This document shows positions 1,508-10,800 of a stretch of DNA of 64,000 nucleotides, piece by piece; position 1 is the first letter of the stretch, and the number at the start of each line of letters is the position of its first letter. Under the pieces are notes generated by a model. It had not been told where the DNA came from and did no database searches. It was given only the letters and a program-made list of their open reading frames with translations. Source of the DNA: Candidatus Aldehydirespiratoraceae bacterium (GTDB taxonomy: Bacteria > Actinomycetota > Acidimicrobiia > Acidimicrobiales > Aldehydirespiratoraceae); contig OZ243951.1 in the NCBI GenBank assembly GCA_965214565.1, positions 1,017 through 65,016 on the forward strand. The letters are read 5' to 3'. Made by a program: the position numbers and the translations under genes.

Positions 1508-3132
1508 GCTCGGACCTCGATTGCGTCTGGGGCCGTCCGCAGGGTCGCCCCGGGAGGGGGCACGCCCGCTTCCAGAGCCCGGCGCAGCGCCGCACCGTCG
1601 GTCGGGATCACTTCAACTGGCCTGGGCAGATCCGCAGGCACCGTGCCGTCGAGGAACACCCCGCGGCTGAGGCACACGTCGGGCAGCAGATAGCGGTGGC
1701 CTTCAGGTTCGCGGGCCAGCACCCTCGCCAGGTCCTCCCCCACCATCAGTCCCGTCACGCCGATGTTGCCGCCGAAGTACTCGTTGGGCACCTCAATGAC
1801 CCGCACGTCGCGGCGGCCCAGCGAGTTCGTGAGCGACTCGATCACGGGTGCCGACATCGACCCCGTGAGCACTCCGACCGGAGCATTCCTGGGCGCTCCG
1901 AGCGACACCCTCGTCGCCCGCGAAGCGTCGCCCGACTCCTTTGACACCCCAGACACGCCAGGGCCTTCGGTCGCGCCAGACACGCCAGAGCCTTCGGTCA
2001 CGCCAGACACGCCGGGCAGGCCGGGCGGAGGTTCGCCGACGGAGTCGGCCGGGGAGCCCGTCCGGGGGGCGCGGTAGCCGTCGGCAGGCGCCCCGTCGAC
2101 CCAGGAGAAGAACCCGGCTCTGGGGCGGGTCGGCTGCCCGGTCGGTTGGAGGAACTCCGACTCGAGGGTGCGGACCATCCCGATCCCGTCCTCATGCATC
2201 GGGAAACCCTCGTAGCTGTCGGCCTCGGGAAACGGCCTGCGGGCCATCAGGTAGTACTCGTCAGCGGCGAACACCAGCCGTCGGCCCACCGCGCTCAGGA
2301 ACACCTCCTGCCAGTCGCTGACGATATCGACGACCCGGCGCGCCTCAGCGAGCGTGTGGGGCCTCATCCTGGCCTGCTTGTTGAACCGTGAGACCCCCAG
2401 AGGCACCACGCAGATCGTCGCCAACTCCGAGAAACGCTCGAGCACGCCCGCGAGGGTGTCTTCAAGCACGTCTGCGTCGTTGACGCCGGGACACACCACG
2501 ACCTGGCCGTGCACCTCGATTCCATGGTCCAGCAGCGCCCGCAGCCATCGCAGCGACACCGCCCCGCGCCGGTTGCGCAGAATATCGGCACGAATCTGCG
2601 GATCGGTGGCATGGATCGAGACGTTGAGCGGCGACAGACGCTCGGTGATGACACGTTCCATGTCCAGTTCAGAGAAACGGGTCAACGTGGTGAAGTTCCC
2701 GTATAGGAACGAGAGCCTGTAGTCGTCGTCCTTCAGGTACAGCGAGCGTCGCATGCCGCGGGGCAGTTGATGGATGAAGCAGAACTCGCAGTGGTTGTCG
2801 CAGGTCTGCACCTTGTCGAACACCGCCGCATGCACCTCAGCACCGAGTGGCTCGCCGTGGCGCTTCGACACCACCAGATCGAGGCGCTGCGGTTCTTGGG
2901 ACCCACCATGGGGTACTCCCCGCTGCACGAGCAGAGGAACCACCGGATCGTCGGTAAGGATCTGCCATCGAATCACGTCGCGGGGAACCTCACCGTCGAT
3001 CATCAAGATCTCGTCGCCCACCATGAGCCCGGCCTGCTCGGCCGGAGATCCCGGTTCCAAGGCGACTACGCGCGGCGACGACATCCAGACAAGGCTACCG
3101 CTCCCACCAATCACCGGGCCGAGCCGAATCAT
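1504..3132 (-). CDS. PDZ + DUF512 (radical-SAM-like) protein
   Basis: N-terminal PDZ-like segment (SPAEQAGLMVGDEILMIDG). Cys motif CDNHCEFCF followed by LYLKDDDYRLSFLYGNFTTLT, typical of DUF512 proteins found upstream of der. Contains an internal Gly/Ser/Val repeat insert. Confidence 0.8.
   Translation of the reverse strand: MIRLGPVIGGSGSLVWMSSPRVVALEPGSPAEQAGLMVGDEILMIDGEVPRDVIRWQILTDDPVVPLLVQRGVPHGGSQEPQRLDLVVSKRHGEPLGAEVHAAVFDKVQTCDNHCEFCFIHQLPRGMRRSLYLKDDDYRLSFLYGNFTTLTRFSELDMERVITERLSPLNVSIHATDPQIRADILRNRRGAVSLRWLRALLDHGIEVHGQVVVCPGVNDADVLEDTLAGVLERFSELATICVVPLGVSRFNKQARMRPHTLAEARRVVDIVSDWQEVFLSAVGRRLVFAADEYYLMARRPFPEADSYEGFPMHEDGIGMVRTLESEFLQPTGQPTRPRAGFFSWVDGAPADGYRAPRTGSPADSVGEPPPGLPGVSGVTEGSGVSGATEGPGVSGVSKESGDASRATRVSLGAPRNAPVGVLTGSMSAPVIESLTNSLGRRDVRVIEVPNEYFGGNIGVTGLMVGEDLARVLAREPEGHRYLLPDVCLSRGVFLDGTVPADLPRPVEVIPTDGAALRRALEAGVPPPGATLRTAPDAIEVRA
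1949..2017. repeat. 27-bp tandem repeat (about 2.5 copies) inside the DUF512 gene
   Basis: ccagacacgccagggccttcggtcgcg / ccagacacgccagagccttcggtcacg / ccagacacgccgggc... The minus-strand frame encodes GVSGVTEGSGVSGATEGPGVSGVS. Confidence 0.85.
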
Positions 3133-3134
3133 TG

Positions 3135-3162
3135 TTGCAATATATCATTTTTCATGTATTCT
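3135..3162 (+). promoter_or_regulatory. candidate sigma-70-type promoter giving a leaderless or near-leaderless transcript
   Basis: About 40 bp of AT-rich DNA in an otherwise GC-rich region. TTGCAA (3135-3140), a 16-nt spacer, then TATTCT (3157-3162). The ATG at 3171 lies 9 nt after the -10 element and has no SD. Confidence 0.35.
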
Positions 3163-3170
3163 CATTGCTC

Positions 3171-4481
3171 ATGACCGGCATCACAGTAACCCGCAGAAAC
3201 GGGAACCTGTTGGCCTGCAAATCGGCAAGACCCGAGGAGTCGGACCGGATTCGACACGAGGCTCAGCTGCTGAAGCACCTGCAGCACCCTGGGATCGTGC
3301 AGTTCGTCGACTTCGTCGATGGGTCGTCGGTTGAACTGTACCTGGGGTTCGTGGGCCCCGACTCTTGGGCGACTCAGCCGCCCGCCTCCTCTGCCGAGTC
3401 GATCGAGGCGCTCGCCTCCGCGGCGTCGACGGTCGCTGATCTCCACAGGGTCGGGACCGTGCACGGGGCGCTGTGTCCCGAACATGTGCTCGTTGCACCC
3501 GACAAGCGTCCGGTCCTGTGCGGGCTGGCCGACGCTACAACCTCAACTGAGACTGGGCGCGCACGCGACCTCGCCGGGCTCGCCTCGCTGATCGATCTTC
3601 TCGCCGCGGGATGCGAGGAGAGGGAACGGCGTCAGCTCGCTGCCTTGGCCCGGCGCGCTGAGCGGGGTTCGGTGACGGCCGACGACGTCACCGCAGAGTT
3701 GGACCGGCTCCACGGTGGACCCGGTAATTCCACCAAGCGACGCTTGCTGCCGACAATTTCCCGACCGTCGAGACGGGCCTCGCTCGCAGCCGCCGCGGTG
3801 CTCGCGGTCGCGGTGCTGGGCTGGTCGATACTCAAACCGGAGGGCTCCGGTTCCAGCACGCCGGAGCTCAGCACGGCCCTGTCCGACTCTGATCCAGCTG
3901 ACGCAGGACCGGGCGCTGCGGGGCCAACCGATGCAGGCGCAACCGATGCGGGCGCAACCGATGCGGGGTCGGTCGGAGCAGGACTAACGGATGCAGGGTC
4001 GGTCGGTGCAGGACTAACGGATGCGGGGTCGGTCGCTGCAGGACTAACGGATGCGGGGCCAACCGCTGCGGGTGCAACCAGCGCAGGTCCGGACATCCCG
4101 GCGCTCGGAACAAGCAACGCCGCGACCATCACAGCCGCCGATGCGGACTCCTCGGACGGGAGCCACATCCGAGTCGATGATGACGACCGGGTGATCATCG
4201 ATCATCGCGGCCGCCGATACGGAGTCGGCCAACCAGGCGACAAAGCCGTCGTCGGCGACTGGAACTGCGACGGAACCCCCACTCTGGCGCTGCTCCAGCC
4301 AAGTACCGGAGTGATAGCGGTGTTCGCAGGCTGGCCCGCGCCATCACAACGCCTCGAAGCCGACTACGTGACCGTGGTCGACGGCGCTACCGACCTTCGC
4401 AACGACCCCTCCGGCGGTTGCGACCAGCTTCGAGTCACCCACCCCGGCGGAACAACCCTCATAGAAACGGAGCTCTCATGA
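3171..4481 (+). CDS. membrane-anchored Ser/Thr-kinase-like pseudokinase with an extracytoplasmic repeat and FG-GAP-like domain
   Basis: Kinase-like core: LACKSAR (VAIK-like Lys) and EAQLLKHLQHPGIV (alpha-C). LHRVGTVHGALCPEHVLV stands in place of HRDLKPxN, and CGLADA in place of DFG. There is no Gly-rich loop. TM helix LAAAAVLAVAVLGWSIL, then DAG(A/S)(T/V) repeats, then GDWNCDGTPT (FG-GAP-like). Start chosen at ATG 3171; the track ORF begins at 3132. Confidence 0.6.
   Translation: MTGITVTRRNGNLLACKSARPEESDRIRHEAQLLKHLQHPGIVQFVDFVDGSSVELYLGFVGPDSWATQPPASSAESIEALASAASTVADLHRVGTVHGALCPEHVLVAPDKRPVLCGLADATTSTETGRARDLAGLASLIDLLAAGCEERERRQLAALARRAERGSVTADDVTAELDRLHGGPGNSTKRRLLPTISRPSRRASLAAAAVLAVAVLGWSILKPEGSGSSTPELSTALSDSDPADAGPGAAGPTDAGATDAGATDAGSVGAGLTDAGSVGAGLTDAGSVAAGLTDAGPTAAGATSAGPDIPALGTSNAATITAADADSSDGSHIRVDDDDRVIIDHRGRRYGVGQPGDKAVVGDWNCDGTPTLALLQPSTGVIAVFAGWPAPSQRLEADYVTVVDGATDLRNDPSGGCDQLRVTHPGGTTLIETELS
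3926..4060. repeat. in-frame tandem repeats: 3 x 15 bp followed by 3 x 30 bp
   Basis: aaccgatgc(a/g)ggcgc occurs three times (3926-3970). ggtcgg(a/t/c)gcaggactaacggatgc(a/g)gggtc occurs three times (3971-4060). These encode TDAGA... and SVGAGLTDAG units. Confidence 0.85.
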
Positions 4482-5296
4482 CCACCAACCGACCCGACCC
4501 ACTGCGCTGCACCGCCACGGTGCTGCTCTCGTTGACCTGTGCAGCCCTGCTGATCGAGATCGACAGCGCAACACCCTGGCCCGCCACAGATCCGACTGCC
4601 TTCCTCGACTGGTGGGAGGGGCTCGGCACAGCCACCGCCGCGATCACCCTGCTTCGAATCCTCGGCATCGCCCTCGCCGGCTGGGGGATATTCATCGGCA
4701 CCGCCGGTCTGTTGGCGTCGATGCAGCCGAGCGCTCTGCTCCAAGGCGTCTGGTGCCGCATCACGCCGGGGTCGTTCAGGCAGATCCTCGCCGCGGGCGC
4801 CATCACCATCACGCTCGCGGCTCCAGTGGCCGCAGCGGCCGGGACCCAGAGCGTCGACGCACAGATCGTGCTGGAGGACCTCGGGATGATCGAAGACCCG
4901 AGCCAACAGGTTGAAGCGGGAAGGTTCACACCGGTGTTGACCGACATCGGTCCGGCCGCCGTCCAGATGTCCACCGCTCCAGAACCGGCGACGATGATCC
5001 TCCCCAACTCCGACACGACCGCTTCCAGACTCACCGAAGCCACCAGCGCCGCCCCGACAGGCACAGAACCCCCCGGCGCCCCAGATTCCCGACTCTGGAC
5101 AGTCAGCGAGGGCGACCACCTCTGGAAGATCGCAATGAAAACCCTACGCGACCACGGCCACTCGACTGAGCCCGACGCCGTGGTCGGCTACTGGAAACAG
5201 CTCATCGACCTCAACAGCGAGGCACTCAACGGGAACCCGGATCTGATTCATCCGGGGATGGTCCTGACCCTGCCTCCAGTGCCGCCCCGATCCTAG
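4478..5296 (+). CDS. membrane protein with a C-terminal LysM domain
   Basis: ATGA start/stop overlap with the pseudokinase gene (4478-4481). Hydrophobic helices in the N-terminal half. C-terminal WTVSEGDHLWKIA...NPDLIHPGMVLTLP matches the LysM pattern. Confidence 0.75.
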   Translation: MTTNRPDPLRCTATVLLSLTCAALLIEIDSATPWPATDPTAFLDWWEGLGTATAAITLLRILGIALAGWGIFIGTAGLLASMQPSALLQGVWCRITPGSFRQILAAGAITITLAAPVAAAAGTQSVDAQIVLEDLGMIEDPSQQVEAGRFTPVLTDIGPAAVQMSTAPEPATMILPNSDTTASRLTEATSAAPTGTEPPGAPDSRLWTVSEGDHLWKIAMKTLRDHGHSTEPDAVVGYWKQLIDLNSEALNGNPDLIHPGMVLTLPPVPPRS

Positions 5297-5633
5297 CGAC
5301 GACACGACTGAGGATCTGAGCCTCCGAATGCGACAGATCCAGCGACTCCACCAGGTCGCCGAAGCGCAGATCCGTCTGATCCGAGTCGCCGCCGCCAACA
5401 GAATGCTCGGGTTCATCAACCGGAAGAAGTTCCGCCACCGGCACGCCGTAGAAATGCGACAGTCGCCACAGACGAGGAACAGAGACCGCGCGCTCACCAC
5501 GTTCATAGGCTCCCAGCACCGAAGCCTTGAACTCCTGGTTCGACATACCCTCGACTTCCTGCAGCGACAACTTCTTCGCCCGTCTGACGGTGCGAAGCGT
5601 CTCCCCCACCCTCTTGGAGTATTCGGCAATCAC
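5226..5633 (-). CDS. BldD-like XRE-family HTH transcriptional regulator (short form)
   Basis: IAEYSKRVGETLRTVRRAKKLSLQEVEGMSNQEFKASVLGAYERGERAVSVPRLWRLSHFYGVPVAELLP aligns by eye with the Streptomyces BldD N-terminal domain as I recall it (SSEYAKQLGAKLRAIRTQQGLSLHGVEEKSQGRWKAVVVGSYERGDRAVTVQRLAELADFYGVPVQELLP). GTG start forms a GTGA overlap with the dnaJ stop (5630-5633). Confidence 0.75.
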   Translation of the reverse strand: MIAEYSKRVGETLRTVRRAKKLSLQEVEGMSNQEFKASVLGAYERGERAVSVPRLWRLSHFYGVPVAELLPVDEPEHSVGGGDSDQTDLRFGDLVESLDLSHSEAQILSRVVARIGAALEAGSGPSPDESDPGSR

Positions 5634-6733
5634 GTGAAAGCCGACTTGATCCGCGAGAACAAGCCCTGGCCAGGCTCAGCGACCTCCTCGCCGCGAGCCT
5701 CGGCCAAATCGCGCAACAGCGCCTCCTGATGCTCATCGAGTTCATCGGGAACATCAACGACGACCTCAACGCGCAGGTCTCCACGACCCCGGCCGTGAAC
5801 ATGGGGAACTCCCCTGCTGCGGAACCGGAACTCCGTGCCGCTCTCTGTGCCGCGGGGGATCACCAGGCTCTCGACCCCGTCGAGGGTCTCGTACTCCAGT
5901 TCCGCACCCAAGGCGACCTGGGTGAAGGGCACGTACAGGGCATGAACGAGATCGTCGCCGTCACGATGGAAAATCGGATGGGGCCGCACGCGCACGTGCA
6001 CATAGAGGTCCCCGTGGGGGCCGCCGCGCATCCCCGCCGCGCCGCGGCCGCCGAGCCGCAGGGTCGTCCCGTCATCGACTCCCACCGGCACGTCGACCTT
6101 GTAGGTCCGCTGCTCTATGGCTCTGCCGAGGCCTCCGCACTCATCGCACGGCGTCTCGATACGCTCACCCGCACCACCGCAGGCCCGACAGGCCGAGGCA
6201 GTAACCATCTGCCCGAGCACAGACTGGCGTACCCGGCGAACCTGGCCGGATCCACCACACTCGCCGCAGACGACGGGGCGTGTGTCGGGAGCCGCACCGG
6301 AGCCGTCGCAAGGTTCGCAACGCACCGCGGTGCGCACATTGATCTCGCGTTCCCCACCGAACACGACATCTTCAAGGTCAAGGTCCACATGAGCTTCGAT
6401 GTCCTCGCCTCGGGGAGTGCTCGCCCGACCCTGAGCCTGGCCGCCGAAACCTGATCCGCTGCCGAAGAAGGCCTCGAAGATGTCGCCCAACCCCCCACCG
6501 AAAGGATCCGCCGCGCCCGGCGCGTCAGTCCCGAAACGGTCGTAGCGGGCTCTGCGGTCACGGTCGGAGAGCACTTCATAGGCGGATGCAACCTCCTTGA
6601 ACCGCGCCTCGGCCGAGGCGTCTGTCGGGTTCATGTCGGGGTGGTATTGCCGAGCGAGTTTCTTGTAGGCGCGTTTGATCTCCTCGTCGGTGGCGTCGCG
6701 CTCCACTCCCAGCGTCTCATAATGATCGGCCAT
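5630..6733 (-). CDS. dnaJ: molecular chaperone DnaJ
   Basis: J domain (DHYETLGV...YHPD), a G/F-rich linker, and four CxxCxGxG zinc-finger repeats. 367 aa. Confidence 0.95.
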   Translation of the reverse strand: MADHYETLGVERDATDEEIKRAYKKLARQYHPDMNPTDASAEARFKEVASAYEVLSDRDRRARYDRFGTDAPGAADPFGGGLGDIFEAFFGSGSGFGGQAQGRASTPRGEDIEAHVDLDLEDVVFGGEREINVRTAVRCEPCDGSGAAPDTRPVVCGECGGSGQVRRVRQSVLGQMVTASACRACGGAGERIETPCDECGGLGRAIEQRTYKVDVPVGVDDGTTLRLGGRGAAGMRGGPHGDLYVHVRVRPHPIFHRDGDDLVHALYVPFTQVALGAELEYETLDGVESLVIPRGTESGTEFRFRSRGVPHVHGRGRGDLRVEVVVDVPDELDEHQEALLRDLAEARGEEVAEPGQGLFSRIKSAFT

Positions 6734-6734
6734 G

Positions 6735-7742
6735 TCAGTTCTCGCTCAGTACGCGTCCGAGACGCCGGCTGACCACCGCCACAGCGGACAGCGCCTGCTC
6801 GTAGTCCATACGCGTCGGTCCCAGCACACCGATCATCCCTGTCGTCTCCCCCTCGACCGAATACGGCGCAACGACCAGCGAACATTCGGCCAGAGGCTCG
6901 ACGCCGGTCTCCCCGCCGATGGCGACTCGCATGCCGCGGTCGAGCACATCGCGGATCAACGACACGACCACGATCTGCTGTTCGAGGATGGAGAGCACGT
7001 CGCGGATCTGTTCGACCGCCTCGAACGCGGCCGCAACGCGGGAGACCCCGCCGACGACGATCTCTGCGGTGTGGGCCGCGGCCCGCAGCGCCTCGACGGC
7101 CGCGCTCAGCAGCGGATCGTCGTCGAGTGCCTCGGGTGTCATCTCTATCAGGGACTTGCCCACGACTGTCTCGGCCAGTCGCCGGTTGGCGTCTTGCACA
7201 ATCTGTGGGGTGAGCTCGGTGGCGACCTCGATGGTGCGCTTCTCGATCACCCCGTTTGACATGACCGCAACCACCATCACCACATGCGAGGAGAGGTCGA
7301 CCAGCTGTGTCGAGCGCACGCGGGCGATGTCGACATTGGGGCCCACCACCACAGCGGCGCAGTCCGTGAGCGAGATGAGCAGGTCGGAGGTGCGGGCCAG
7401 AACAGATTCGAGTTCACCGTGGGCATCGGCGAAGAACTGGCGGACCATCCCGCGGTCAGCCCCTACCAGCGAGGGTTCACGTCTACGGAGGGTGTCGACG
7501 AAGAATCGGTAGCCCTTGTCGGTCGGTATCCGCCCCGCACTCGTGTGGGGCTGGGTGAGGTACCCCTGCTCTTCGAGCACTGCCATGTCGTGCCGCACCG
7601 TCGCGGGCGACACGGCGACGCCGGGAGCGTTGGATATCCGCCCCGAACCCACCGGTTGTGCCGTTTCGATGTACTGCTGGACAACGGCTGAGAGGATCGC
7701 TGCCTTGCGGTTGTCGAACACCATGCGCAAATCGTCGACCAT
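6735..7742 (-). CDS. hrcA: heat-inducible transcription repressor HrcA
   Basis: N-terminal winged HTH (RKAAILSAVVQQYIETAQPVGS), HrcA-typical length, and a position directly upstream of dnaJ. Confidence 0.92.
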   Translation of the reverse strand: MVDDLRMVFDNRKAAILSAVVQQYIETAQPVGSGRISNAPGVAVSPATVRHDMAVLEEQGYLTQPHTSAGRIPTDKGYRFFVDTLRRREPSLVGADRGMVRQFFADAHGELESVLARTSDLLISLTDCAAVVVGPNVDIARVRSTQLVDLSSHVVMVVAVMSNGVIEKRTIEVATELTPQIVQDANRRLAETVVGKSLIEMTPEALDDDPLLSAAVEALRAAAHTAEIVVGGVSRVAAAFEAVEQIRDVLSILEQQIVVVSLIRDVLDRGMRVAIGGETGVEPLAECSLVVAPYSVEGETTGMIGVLGPTRMDYEQALSAVAVVSRRLGRVLSEN

Positions 7743-7847
7743 TCGAGAATTGTACCGTTATCTGCTAGCGCAGGGTGTTCAGAAGGCAGTTGCGTGGAGG
7801 TTCAGGTTTCGGTTGCGCAGGCGGTGAGGCTCGCCCGGCGGATGCTG

Positions 7848-10800
7848 CTAGTCGTTGTCTTTGATGGTGCCGGTGGCGTAGGTGAAGTTGAAGATGGTGG
7901 TGAAGGTGCTCTCGTAGGCGTACATTCTGATTGTCTCGTCACCTTCAACTGTGTTGTCGTCGATGATCGGCACAACGATCTCGACTTGGGTTTCTCCTGG
8001 GTTGATCGTGAATGTCCGGTAGGGGATGGTGAAGTCTTGGTTGTATTTGGCGGTGATGTCGAACGCGCCGTAGCCGAGTTTGATTTCTTGGTCGCTGGCT
8101 CTTGAGAGCGTCGCGACGAAACGCAGCCCTTGGGGGTCGCCTTCAGAGGCCGAAGCGTCGGCCACGGTCAGGGTTATCGGGCCTGACTGGGCTGGGGCGC
8201 CGTTGGACGTGTCGCCGTCGGATGTGTCGGTGGTGTCGGCGGCTGGGGGATCGTCGTCGTCGGAGATCGTGACCGTGGCGGCACCGTTGTTCGACGACAC
8301 GGTGTAGCCGTTGCCAGAGTTGATGGTGGCGGTGACCGTCCCGTCGGGTTCGTCGGTGCTGTCGTCGTTAGTCGCGATGATGAGGGTGTAGGTGCCTGAG
8401 GTGGGGATGGTGACGGTCTGGGTGCCGGTCGACGCGAAATCACCGCTCTGGGTGATCTTGACGGTCACGTCGAGAGCAGCGGAGGGCGCGGGGTCGGCGG
8501 TGATCGTGAACGTTGCGTCGTCGCCTTCGGTGACGTCAGCGCTGGCAGTGATGCTGATCTCGGGGACGTCGTTGTCGGCGACTGCGACGGTCGCCGTGTT
8601 CTGTGTGGATGACACGGTGTAGCCGGCACCGGTGTTGATGGTGGCGGTGACCGTCCCGTCGGGTTCGTCGGTGCTGTCGTCGCCGGTGGCGACGGTGAGG
8701 GTGTAGGTGCCTGAGGTGGGGATGGTGACGGTCTGGGTGCCGGTGGACGTGAACGCGCCGGTTTGGGTGATCTTGACGGCCACGCTGAGTGCTGTGTGCG
8801 GTGCAGGATCCGCAGTGATCGTGAACGTGGCGTCTTCGCCTTCGGTGACGTCTGCGCCGGCAGTGATGACTATTTCGGGGACATCGTCGTCTGACACGGC
8901 GACGGTCGCCGCGCCCTGTGTGGACGACACCGTGTAGCCGGAACCAATGTTGATGGCGGCAGCAACCGTCCCGTCAGGCTCGTCGACGCTGTCGTCGGTG
9001 GTGGCCACGGTCAGCGTGTAGCTGCCTGTTGTGGGGATGGTGACGGTCTGGGTGCCGGTGGACGTGAACGCGCCGGTTTGGGTGATCTCAATGGTGACGT
9101 CGAGATCGGCTGTGGGTGCGGGGGCAGCGGTGATCGTGTACGTGGCGTCGCCGCCTTCGGTCACATCTGTGCCTGCGGTAATGCTGATTTCGGGTTCGAC
9201 GGGCGGTGGGGCCGGTTTGGCGGTTTGGGCTTGTTCGATGCATTCCAAAGCCTCCCGGAACGGCCGCCATCCCGACCAGCGGGTTTCGCTTTGGCTTGCC
9301 TCGGCCGCGGTGAACGGTTTGAGTTGGGTGTCGGCAATGTCGCCGAACGCGATGAGCACTCGACGCCAGTTCTTGCCGTAGCCCGGAGCGCGGTGCTTGT
9401 TGAGGTCGTAGTATCTGCGGGCGAGTTTCAGCGTGTCGTCAGGAACACATTCGGGTGGCACAGCGGGCGGGTCGCTGCTGGTTTCATCCTCACCGGAGAG
9501 GTCGACGGTCGTGGTGGCGGCGAGGCTATCGAGGTACACGGCGGTTCCGCTGTCGGTGTCATATCCAGGGGTGACAGTGACAGTGACCGTGACGGGTCCG
9601 GCGATGCCGTGATCGAGCGTGTGGCTGGTCGTGGCGATGCCGTCGAACACGCCGGCGGACTGTGCGGTTCCGTCGGCGGCTTCGGCGCTGTAGGCCACGA
9701 GGTACTTGTCAGCGTCCGCTACCGCATCCCAGGAAACGTCGACGCTGGTACCGCCGCCGGTTGCGAGCGTGAGGTTCGCGACGACCGCCGCCGGTTCCGG
9801 CGGCGCCTCGGCGGGCTGTGGGACATCCCGGGACGGGCTATTCTGCGGTGTGTGCTGGTTCGTGTACTGACGGCGCAAAAACGGACAGTCGGAGGGCCAA
9901 TGGAACCGGCCGCTGGAGACGTAATGGGTTTGTAGATTCAAGGTGTCCGCAGTGACGACCGGGGCGTTCGGGTTGCCCCACTCGCGCATATGCCATGTGT
10001 ACGGACCGCCGGGGGTCTGCTTAGAAAAGTACACCAGCCGATAAAACTTGGTGGAATCCAGGTCGCGGTACTGGCCGATCTCGAACTCCTTAGGATAGTG
10101 GCGGAACACCTCGCCGAGGCTGAACGCCCGCATCTTGTCCACCGTCGCCCGCCGGAACCCACCACCAGTCCCGGAATGCACCACGTCCGCGCACTGGGTG
10201 CCCTCAACGTGCAGACTGCGGGTGTTGTGCACCCAGATAACCCGATAACACTTCCACGAAATCCGTGTCTGCGTGTGCCGGTCACCACCGTAGCCACCGT
10301 CCCAACAACCCGCAGCAGTCGGCTCGCCGTCATGGAACGTGAACGTCAACGACTGTTGTGGCGTGCCGTTCCGCGTGAACGAGATCCCCGTGAACGTCAA
10401 CGGGTCATACCCGGCGATCTGAGTCACGTTGATCGTCACCGTCACATCACTCGCAGGTTGTGACGACAGGCGCACGAAATAGTCCAGCACCTCCCCCGGG
10501 GTGATATCAGGCGCAGGACCCAACCCCGGCGTCGACGTCAACGTGTTCGGGCGGAAAATCCCCCACCCGCGATTAGCCCGCTTATGCGCGTTGTACGCAG
10601 CCTCGTCATAGGTACGGCGATACTCGAACACCTCCAACTCCGGCGCGTCGGTCACCAACACCGACACAGTGCCCAGGCTGGAGCTGCTGTAACCGCCGCC
10701 GGACGCGGTCTGCGTCAAATTGAACCTCCGGTTGCGATTATCGCTGGGCTCGTCGACTGCGGTGACGGTAACCTGCTGTGGTTCGGTGTAGTTCGACGCC

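Follow-up and report, generated by a model that had tools for sequence, protein, structure and literature searches.

A truncated orthologue of BldD without the c-di-GMP motif behind hrcA-dnaJ in a genus of uncultured Acidimicrobiales

The window analysed here is a 64,000-nucleotide stretch of contig OZ243951.1 from a Candidatus Aldehydirespiratoraceae bacterium, a member of a genus of uncultured Acidimicrobiales. The host genome (G000) is 3.25 Mb in 3 contigs and is 96% complete. On the minus strand of the window, positions 5226-5633 hold an open reading frame (ORF) of 135 residues encoding a shortened relative of BldD; we call this gene bldD'. BldD is the textbook transcription factor dimerised by a tetramer of cyclic di-GMP (c-di-GMP). 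The ORF follows hrcA and dnaJ and converges with a gene for a LysM-domain protein. Its GTG, the sole in-frame start candidate, overlaps the dnaJ stop as the preliminary description of this DNA had stated. At 5630-5633 the plus-strand sequence is tcac, or GTGA on the minus strand, and the GTG of bldD' shares three bases with the dnaJ TGA. The features of the locus are as follows.

5226..5633, minus strand: bldD' coding sequence, a truncated BldD orthologue of 135 aa (ORF and translation; top PDB and NCBIfam match BldD; 16 orthologues in the genus)
5421..5633, minus strand: BldD-type XRE DNA-binding domain, residues 1-71 (identity, AlphaFold2 model, ratio of nonsynonymous to synonymous substitution rates (dN/dS), invariant Tyr62)
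5361..5420, minus strand: acidic flexible linker, residues 72-91 (predicted local distance difference test score (pLDDT) <50 for residues 75-87; relaxed constraint, dN/dS 0.51)
5289..5360, minus strand: what remains of the C-terminal domain (its first part), residues 92-115, stopping just short of the expected position of motif 1 (RXD) (alignment to full-length Acidimicrobiales BldD and NF050110)
5226..5296, minus strand: new C-terminal tail, residues 113-135 and stop, antisense to the LysM gene (71-nt convergent overlap with the LysM 3' end)
5630..5633, minus strand: GTGA, bldD' start overlapping the dnaJ stop (sequence)
5630..6733, minus strand: dnaJ (Pfam DnaJ, DnaJ_CXXCXGXG, DnaJ_C)
6735..7742, minus strand: hrcA (Pfam HrcA, E=7e-47)
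7749..7754, minus strand: TACAAT, a -10-like hexamer 6 nt 5' of the hrcA ATG (conserved in the genus)
4418..5296, plus strand: LysM-domain membrane protein gene, convergent with bldD' (Pfam LysM)
3132-4481, plus strand: kinase-like gene, a conserved neighbour of the bldD locus

The first ~70 residues show a similarity specific to BldD, and this early claim is borne out by every comparison made. A PDB sequence search matches the BldD DNA-binding domain (2ewt/4ob4) with E=4e-17, and the next XRE protein follows at E=0.013. BLASTP aligns the protein to the DNA-binding domain of S. coelicolor BldD without gaps, with 39 of 71 residues identical (55%). Among NCBIfam families the BldD equivalog NF050110 is the sole real match (83.1 bits, E=1.7e-23; next family E=0.007). 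The AlphaFold2 (AF2) model has pLDDT 92-97 for residues 1-70 and fits 2ewt with a template modelling (TM) score of 0.96 and a root-mean-square deviation (rmsd) of 1.0 Å. In Foldseek two structures of the BldD DNA-binding domain rank first (TM 0.96, rmsd 0.6-1.0 Å), and C.AhdI, C.BclI and ClgR rank below both. No other XRE subfamily scores better and BldD is far ahead; the 135-aa protein is BldD-type and not a generic XRE protein. Tyr62, which we take to be the residue altered in the classical bldD mutant, does not vary across our alignment of truncated and full-length proteins (A1). Residue 56 (codon 5466-5468, minus strand), within PRL(Q/W)RL, is tryptophan in every protein of the short clade. 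The same position is glutamine in all aligned full-length Acidimicrobiales BldD and alanine in Streptomyces BldD.

The second half of the protein is a mixture of old and new sequence. The preliminary description regarded all that follows residue 70 as unrelated to BldD; residues ~72-115 are in fact homologous and include the first part of the C-terminal domain, and the c-di-GMP motif is missing. The alignment with NF050110 reaches residue 114, which corresponds to model position 109 of 162, and in tblastn against full-length Acidimicrobiales loci the homology extends to residue 115. The first 115 residues are 50-58% identical to full-length Acidimicrobiales BldD, and the pattern DLxxLxxLSxxEAxxLxRxxxxI is common to truncated and full-length proteins in A1. 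At the aligned place the full-length relatives have RQD-FNGRVLT[IV]-RxxD; their sequence after the common pattern reads QVQRQDFNGRVLT[IV]RxxD, with an intact RXD-X8-RXXD motif. No RXD-X8-RXXD is found at this place in the bldD' product, so that the predicted loss of the motif stands. Instead, the bldD' product and all 13 short relatives in A1 read AALEAGSGPSPDES... in place of the motif, and where the full-length proteins continue they have GAALEAGSGPSPDESDPGSR and then the stop.

Of the BldD C-terminal domain, the protein retains just the first ~30 residues. The NF050110 score lies under the 250-bit equivalog cut-off and the match covers model positions 1-109 of 162 only. PF21179 (BldD-like_C) has no match in the protein, and its best match genome-wide (E=0.4) is at an unrelated place. 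The bldD' product falls short of the equivalog cut-off and has neither the full C-terminal domain nor the motif, so it is not BldD in the functional, c-di-GMP-dependent sense; by descent it is a BldD orthologue. Compared with Streptomyces BldD (SCO1489 and its S. venezuelae counterpart; PDB 2EWT, 4OB4; NF050110), it shares the XRE domain (55% over 71 residues) with its predicted fold and Tyr62, a flexible linker after the DNA-binding domain, and a recognisably homologous first part of the C-terminal domain. It differs in having neither the second half of that domain nor RXD-X8-RXXD nor PF21179, and its host genome has no diguanylate cyclase.

BldD homology ends (~residue 115) where the antisense overlap with the LysM gene starts (residue 113). 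The last 23 codons and the stop of the LysM gene lie under the bldD' tail (71 nt). Over the genus the overlap is 71-86 nt and is kept in 16 of 16 orthologous loci. In full-length loci of the family, the bldD and LysM stops are -17 to +56 nt apart, tail-to-tail. About 60 codons of the bldD 3' end are gone, including both c-di-GMP motifs and the original stop. A single 3' deletion of ~190 nt that removed the stop codon would produce exactly such a short C-terminus and such an overlap. A frameshift or sequencing error as the source of the short C-terminus is ruled out by the same stop and overlap in 16 species. In the AF2 model, residues 85-97 and 102-121 form helices of moderate confidence (pLDDT 65-75), and the tail is disordered (pLDDT <50). 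The locus cleanly illustrates how a new protein C-terminus can arise when a deletion makes translation read through into a neighbouring gene's antisense strand.

The bldD' gene was described earlier as a paralogue of bldD. We find no second BldD-family gene in the genome (3.25 Mb), where bldD' is the sole match, and its position is that of full-length bldD in sister genera. A single copy with the same flanking genes as full-length bldD makes bldD' a truncated orthologue, and the paralogue claim falls. A full-length BldD match is present in most of 201 genomes from the order. At the 30 best loci, dnaJ usually precedes bldD on the same strand, and a convergent LysM gene often follows downstream. 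The two of these that we read (L009, L012) have dnaJ, rsmE (~230 aa), a spacer of ~100 nt and bldD (175-183 aa). In L009 the LysM and kinase-like genes are convergent downstream, as in the window, and L012 has a different downstream gene. The arrangement hrcA-dnaJ-rsmE-bldD is found in G111, a genome of a sister genus. The full-length bldD genes of sister genera and of the order at large encode 175-195 aa with RQD-X8-RxxD. Many matches to model positions 1-75 or 1-90 had raised the idea that a BldD consisting of the N-terminal domain only is common across the order. We rejected it, as the family-level table shows the genes behind these matches to be full-length, with long linkers and with the profile hidden Markov model (HMM) search reporting each in two pieces.

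Fifteen other species of the genus have hrcA-dnaJ-bldD', convergent with the LysM and kinase-like genes and with no rsmE. For the gene rsmE (16S rRNA m3U1498 methyltransferase, PF04452) none of the genus's 18 genomes gave a match, and the deletion joining bldD' to dnaJ seems to have removed it from the lineage altogether. By this comparison of gene order, bldD ancestrally followed hrcA, dnaJ and rsmE in the Acidimicrobiales and was convergent with the LysM gene. By the same comparison two deletions made bldD'; one took rsmE and the gene's own promoter region, and the other took the 3' half of the C-terminal domain. As a separate observation, the pair of kinase-like and LysM genes adjoins bldD well beyond the genus (L009, L085) and stays in place in some genomes without BldD (G205, G202, G235, G274).

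Full-length Acidimicrobiales BldD (P0034, P0046, P0068; 165-195 aa, PF21179) thus shares with the bldD' product the locus downstream of hrcA-dnaJ and the convergent LysM gene, as well as a nearly invariant core, SLQEVE..S.QEFKASVLGAYERGERAISVPRL. Those proteins differ in keeping RQD-X8-RxxD and the rest of the C-terminal domain. Their genes are separated from dnaJ by rsmE and an own palindrome-bearing intergenic region, and they occur only in GGDEF-bearing genomes. Streptomyces bldD presumably lies between pyrR and nusB, a locus different from that of bldD'.

The junction with dnaJ is not uniform within the genus. The GTGA overlap, described as a translational coupling, is present in the window and is confined to 5 of the 16 species keeping bldD' (the host, G262, G240, G254 and G164). 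The other 11 species have a spacer of 26-60 nt with a conserved Shine-Dalgarno-like AGGTGA 7 nt before the GTG start. In a tree of HrcA and DnaJ, four of the five overlap species (G254 is not in the tree) form a subclade nested among spacer species, suggesting that the overlap is probably the later state. In no species does the dnaJ-bldD' junction leave space for the former bldD promoter region. In sister genera (L035-L049, L057-L062), a palindrome, mostly TCACGGTGCGTAA, lies 80-117 nt 5' of full-length bldD and fits the Streptomyces BldD box TNAC-N5-GTNA. This suggests autoregulation of BldD in the Acidimicrobiales sister genera. With the palindrome-bearing upstream region deleted, autoregulation has presumably been lost for bldD'.

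A consensus scan of 5000-7900 finds no promoter-like or terminator-like site. This result and the 4-nt overlap make it likely, as far as sequence can tell, that hrcA, dnaJ and bldD' are co-transcribed. The sequence GGTACAAT is invariant in 16 of 16 aligned loci of the genus and ends 6 nt before the hrcA ATG, with no Shine-Dalgarno sequence (window 7743-7760, minus strand). It is conserved although the sequence upstream differs between species. In 14 of 15 other species (L063-L077) the upstream neighbour of hrcA is lepA, ending 30-60 nt away; in the window a giant gene of 4,886 aa ends where the relatives have lepA. TACAAT is therefore a candidate -10 box, the probable promoter of a leaderless hrcA-dnaJ-bldD' transcript.

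The coupling to a heat-shock operon proposed earlier holds in that bldD' directly follows dnaJ with a 4-nt overlap and is likely co-transcribed with it. It is not supported as regards heat-shock control. The controlling inverted repeat of chaperone expression (CIRCE; TTAGCACTC-N9-GAGTGCTAA) has no match within 3 mismatches in the window, including upstream of hrcA. Outside the window, a perfect CIRCE (0 mismatches) lies ~67 nt 5' of a GroES-like ORF (G000:C1:1745324), and a CIRCE with 2 mismatches lies ~64 nt 5' of a GroEL-like ORF (G000:C1:1617135). With CIRCE at groES and groEL only, HrcA appears to control the chaperonins and not visibly its own operon. Such control of chaperonins by HrcA is usual in Actinobacteria.

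The host genome has no recognisable c-di-GMP signalling. No GGDEF, EAL or PilZ domain is found in it, and positive controls gave matches; across the genus, 0 of 18 genomes have a GGDEF match. The absence of a diguanylate cyclase fits independence from c-di-GMP. With the motif deleted as well, the bldD' product is very probably c-di-GMP-independent, as had been proposed. We compared the presence of BldD and GGDEF in a family sample of 101 genomes from 11 genera, with counts that refer to kin and not to independent cases.

Own genus g1 (without G000): BldD match in 15/17 (all truncated); GGDEF in 0/17
Genus g2: BldD match in 16/16; GGDEF in 15/16
Genus g152: BldD match in 1/1; GGDEF in 1/1
Genus g154: BldD match in 4/4; GGDEF in 4/4
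Genus g155: BldD match in 9/10; GGDEF in 10/10
Genus g156: BldD match in 6/7; GGDEF in 7/7
Genus g157: BldD match in 3/3; GGDEF in 3/3
Genus g149: BldD match in 0/3; GGDEF in 0/3
Genus g150: BldD match in 0/4; GGDEF in 0/4
Genus g151: BldD match in 0/33; GGDEF in 0/33
Genus g153: BldD match in 0/2; GGDEF in 0/2

Full-length BldD is present in nearly every genome of the six GGDEF-bearing genera, and BldD is missing from all 42 genomes of the four GGDEF-less genera. A BldD match in the absence of GGDEF is confined to the genus of the host. The same holds in the order sample, for which complete lists were compared by hand. There, 160 of 160 BldD-positive genomes outside the genus are also GGDEF-positive, and the only BldD-positive, GGDEF-negative genomes are three of the genus itself. 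The loci of BldD-less genomes show how the gene was removed. In G205 rsmE faces the LysM gene directly and bldD is gone. In G203 and G213 rsmE faces the kinase-like gene, and both bldD and a recognisable LysM gene are gone. In G202 dnaJ faces the LysM gene directly, with rsmE and bldD gone; these four represent BldD-less genera. Two deeper members of the host's own genus, G235 and G274 (DnaJ ~80% identical), also have no BldD match. In their loci (L097 at G235:C88 and L098 at G274:C14) the dnaJ stop is a few bases from the convergent LysM stop, and rsmE and bldD are gone. We do not claim independent losses of GGDEF, because the HrcA and DnaJ tree needs 3 changes and a single GGDEF-less clade is not rejected (approximately unbiased (AU) test, p=0.063). 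On this tree the independent events number between one and three.

Selection acts unevenly along the gene. Pooled Nei-Gojobori estimates from 12 representative species give dN/dS 0.13 for the DNA-binding domain (residues 2-71; dS 0.88) and 0.51 for the linker (72-91; dS 0.96). For the remnant of the C-terminal domain (92-112) dN/dS is 0.34 with dS 0.62, and for the tail (113-135) it is 1.5 with dS 0.13. The tail values follow from the LysM overlap, in which third positions of bldD' stand opposite second positions of LysM codons. The conserved SPDES of the tail lies opposite the LysM core DLIHPG. The LysM dS is 0.41 inside the overlap and 0.70 adjacent to it, a comparison that covers 22 codons only, and the lower value could reflect some constraint from the tail. 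Judged by these rates, selection clearly maintains the DNA-binding domain and moderately maintains the remnant, and the tail is mostly a by-product.

We estimate a probability of roughly 65% that bldD' is the single, orthologous, truncated and working form of BldD, independent of c-di-GMP, in a genus without c-di-GMP-making enzymes. Sequence comparison makes a working, c-di-GMP-independent BldD the most likely state. Several observations weigh against it. In S. venezuelae a c-di-GMP-blind BldD (DGR-X8-DQDR) fails to complement the bldD mutant (PMC4151990), and by this precedent a BldD without the motif might be inactive unless ligand-independent dimerisation has been gained. Close kin can dispense with the gene, which has been deleted in full from G235 and G274 and from four more GGDEF-less genera. 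Little constraint of its own is seen in the tail. The window has 2 occurrences of TNAC-N5-GTNA, each within the giant gene, against an expectation of 8.3. Genome-wide there are 240 occurrences against ~440 expected, with no enrichment and no target list, and crudely defined non-coding DNA has 78 against 107 expected; the genome count used rough gene calling (ORFs filtered by GC content at third codon positions, GC3) and is uninformative rather than negative.

The complete deletions in kin, the null phenotype of the blind allele in Streptomyces (PMC4151990) and a tail that looks like accidental antisense read-through (dN/dS ~1.5) would all suit a decaying remnant, in which BldD became useless after c-di-GMP was lost and a half-deleted, functionless leftover merely stayed open. 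We regard this as unlikely. The ORF is intact in 16 species, and dN/dS of 0.13 at dS ~0.88 indicates a DNA-binding domain maintained over a long divergence. The start context is kept or tightened in every species, either as the Shine-Dalgarno-like AGGTGA or as the GTGA overlap, and the change of Gln56 to Trp (Q56W) is fixed in all members of the short clade. The protein might also have been re-purposed as a sensor that is still under signal control, with helices 85-121, with or without the SPDES tail, binding another partner or ligand. Moderate purifying selection on the remnant (dN/dS 0.34) and the drop in LysM dS within the overlap, a possible sign of tail constraint, speak for such a role. 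However, the remnant comprises only ~30 residues, modelled at pLDDT 65-75, and the tail is disordered in the model; the drop in dS comes from those 22 codons. The position of SPDES opposite the most conserved LysM residues, DLIHPG, explains its conservation alone, and a re-purposed sensor appears quite improbable.

The preliminary description favoured a c-di-GMP-independent BldD paralogue wired into the HrcA heat-shock regulon, with targets that respond to heat or proteotoxic stress. In agreement with this proposal, bldD' comes third behind hrcA and dnaJ, overlaps dnaJ by 4 nt and shows no internal promoter-like site in our scan. Against it stand the sole copy at an orthologous locus, the absence of CIRCE within 3 mismatches in the window, and the restriction of CIRCE to groES (0 mismatches) and groEL (2 mismatches). 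The neighbourhood of hrcA-dnaJ is an ancestral trait of the order and no new recruitment. We consider this the least probable of the explanations weighed here, and the wiring into the heat-shock regulon is not upheld.

For a working, c-di-GMP-independent BldD, the proposed course sets out from the two deletions. The loss of rsmE and of the ~100-nt intergenic region with its BldD-box-like palindrome has placed bldD directly after dnaJ. With the 3' deletion, translation runs 71 nt into the LysM antisense strand and adds a disordered tail. The product would act as a constitutive BldD-type DNA-binding repressor without ligand control. Its level would be set by hrcA-dnaJ transcription from the leaderless TACAAT promoter and, in the GTGA subclade, also by termination-reinitiation at GTGA. 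Dimerisation on DNA would occur through the DNA-binding domain itself, possibly aided by the retained helices (85-121) and the clade-specific Q56W. Crosslinking of the isolated BldD DNA-binding domain gives a dimer even without c-di-GMP (PMC4151990). Q56W may be a compensatory change that serves ligand-free dimerisation. We offer only tentatively, as a possibility somewhat less probable than even, the specific proposal that a c-di-GMP-blind BldD is kept functional by ligand-independent dimerisation (Q56W and the helical hairpin 85-121), with control shifted to operon-level expression behind hrcA-dnaJ.

The engineered DGR-X8-DQDR protein of S. venezuelae (Tschowri et al. 2014, PMC4151990) is the closest functional comparison. 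Like the bldD' product, it is without dimerisation of its C-terminal domains by the c-di-GMP tetramer. The two differ in that the engineered allele is null in vivo, while bldD' is under purifying selection in 16 species. Given the null phenotype, the bldD' product must have either stronger ligand-free dimerisation or a reduced role; equally, the retention of a natural truncated form in 16 species implies that the protein either acts without the ligand or has another role. The c-di-GMP motif is described as fully conserved in every BldD homologue of sporulating actinomycetes (PMC10359459), and BldD orthologues in Acidimicrobium and repeated loss across the phylum were noted long ago (PMC4255298). 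Our limited literature search, which does not prove absence, found no description of a natural motif-less BldD or of BldD loss tracking GGDEF loss.

The locus is a natural counter-example to BldD as a c-di-GMP-dimerised factor, as this genus has kept only the DNA-binding half, behind a chaperone operon. It is also a natural experiment on the fate of a second-messenger effector once the messenger disappears. Two questions become testable: whether the BldD DNA-binding domain can work without ligand-driven dimerisation, and what BldD regulates in non-sporulating, deep-branching Actinobacteria. If the specific proposal of ligand-independent dimerisation is true, bldD' would document how a second-messenger effector was rewired, not discarded, after the messenger was lost from the lineage.

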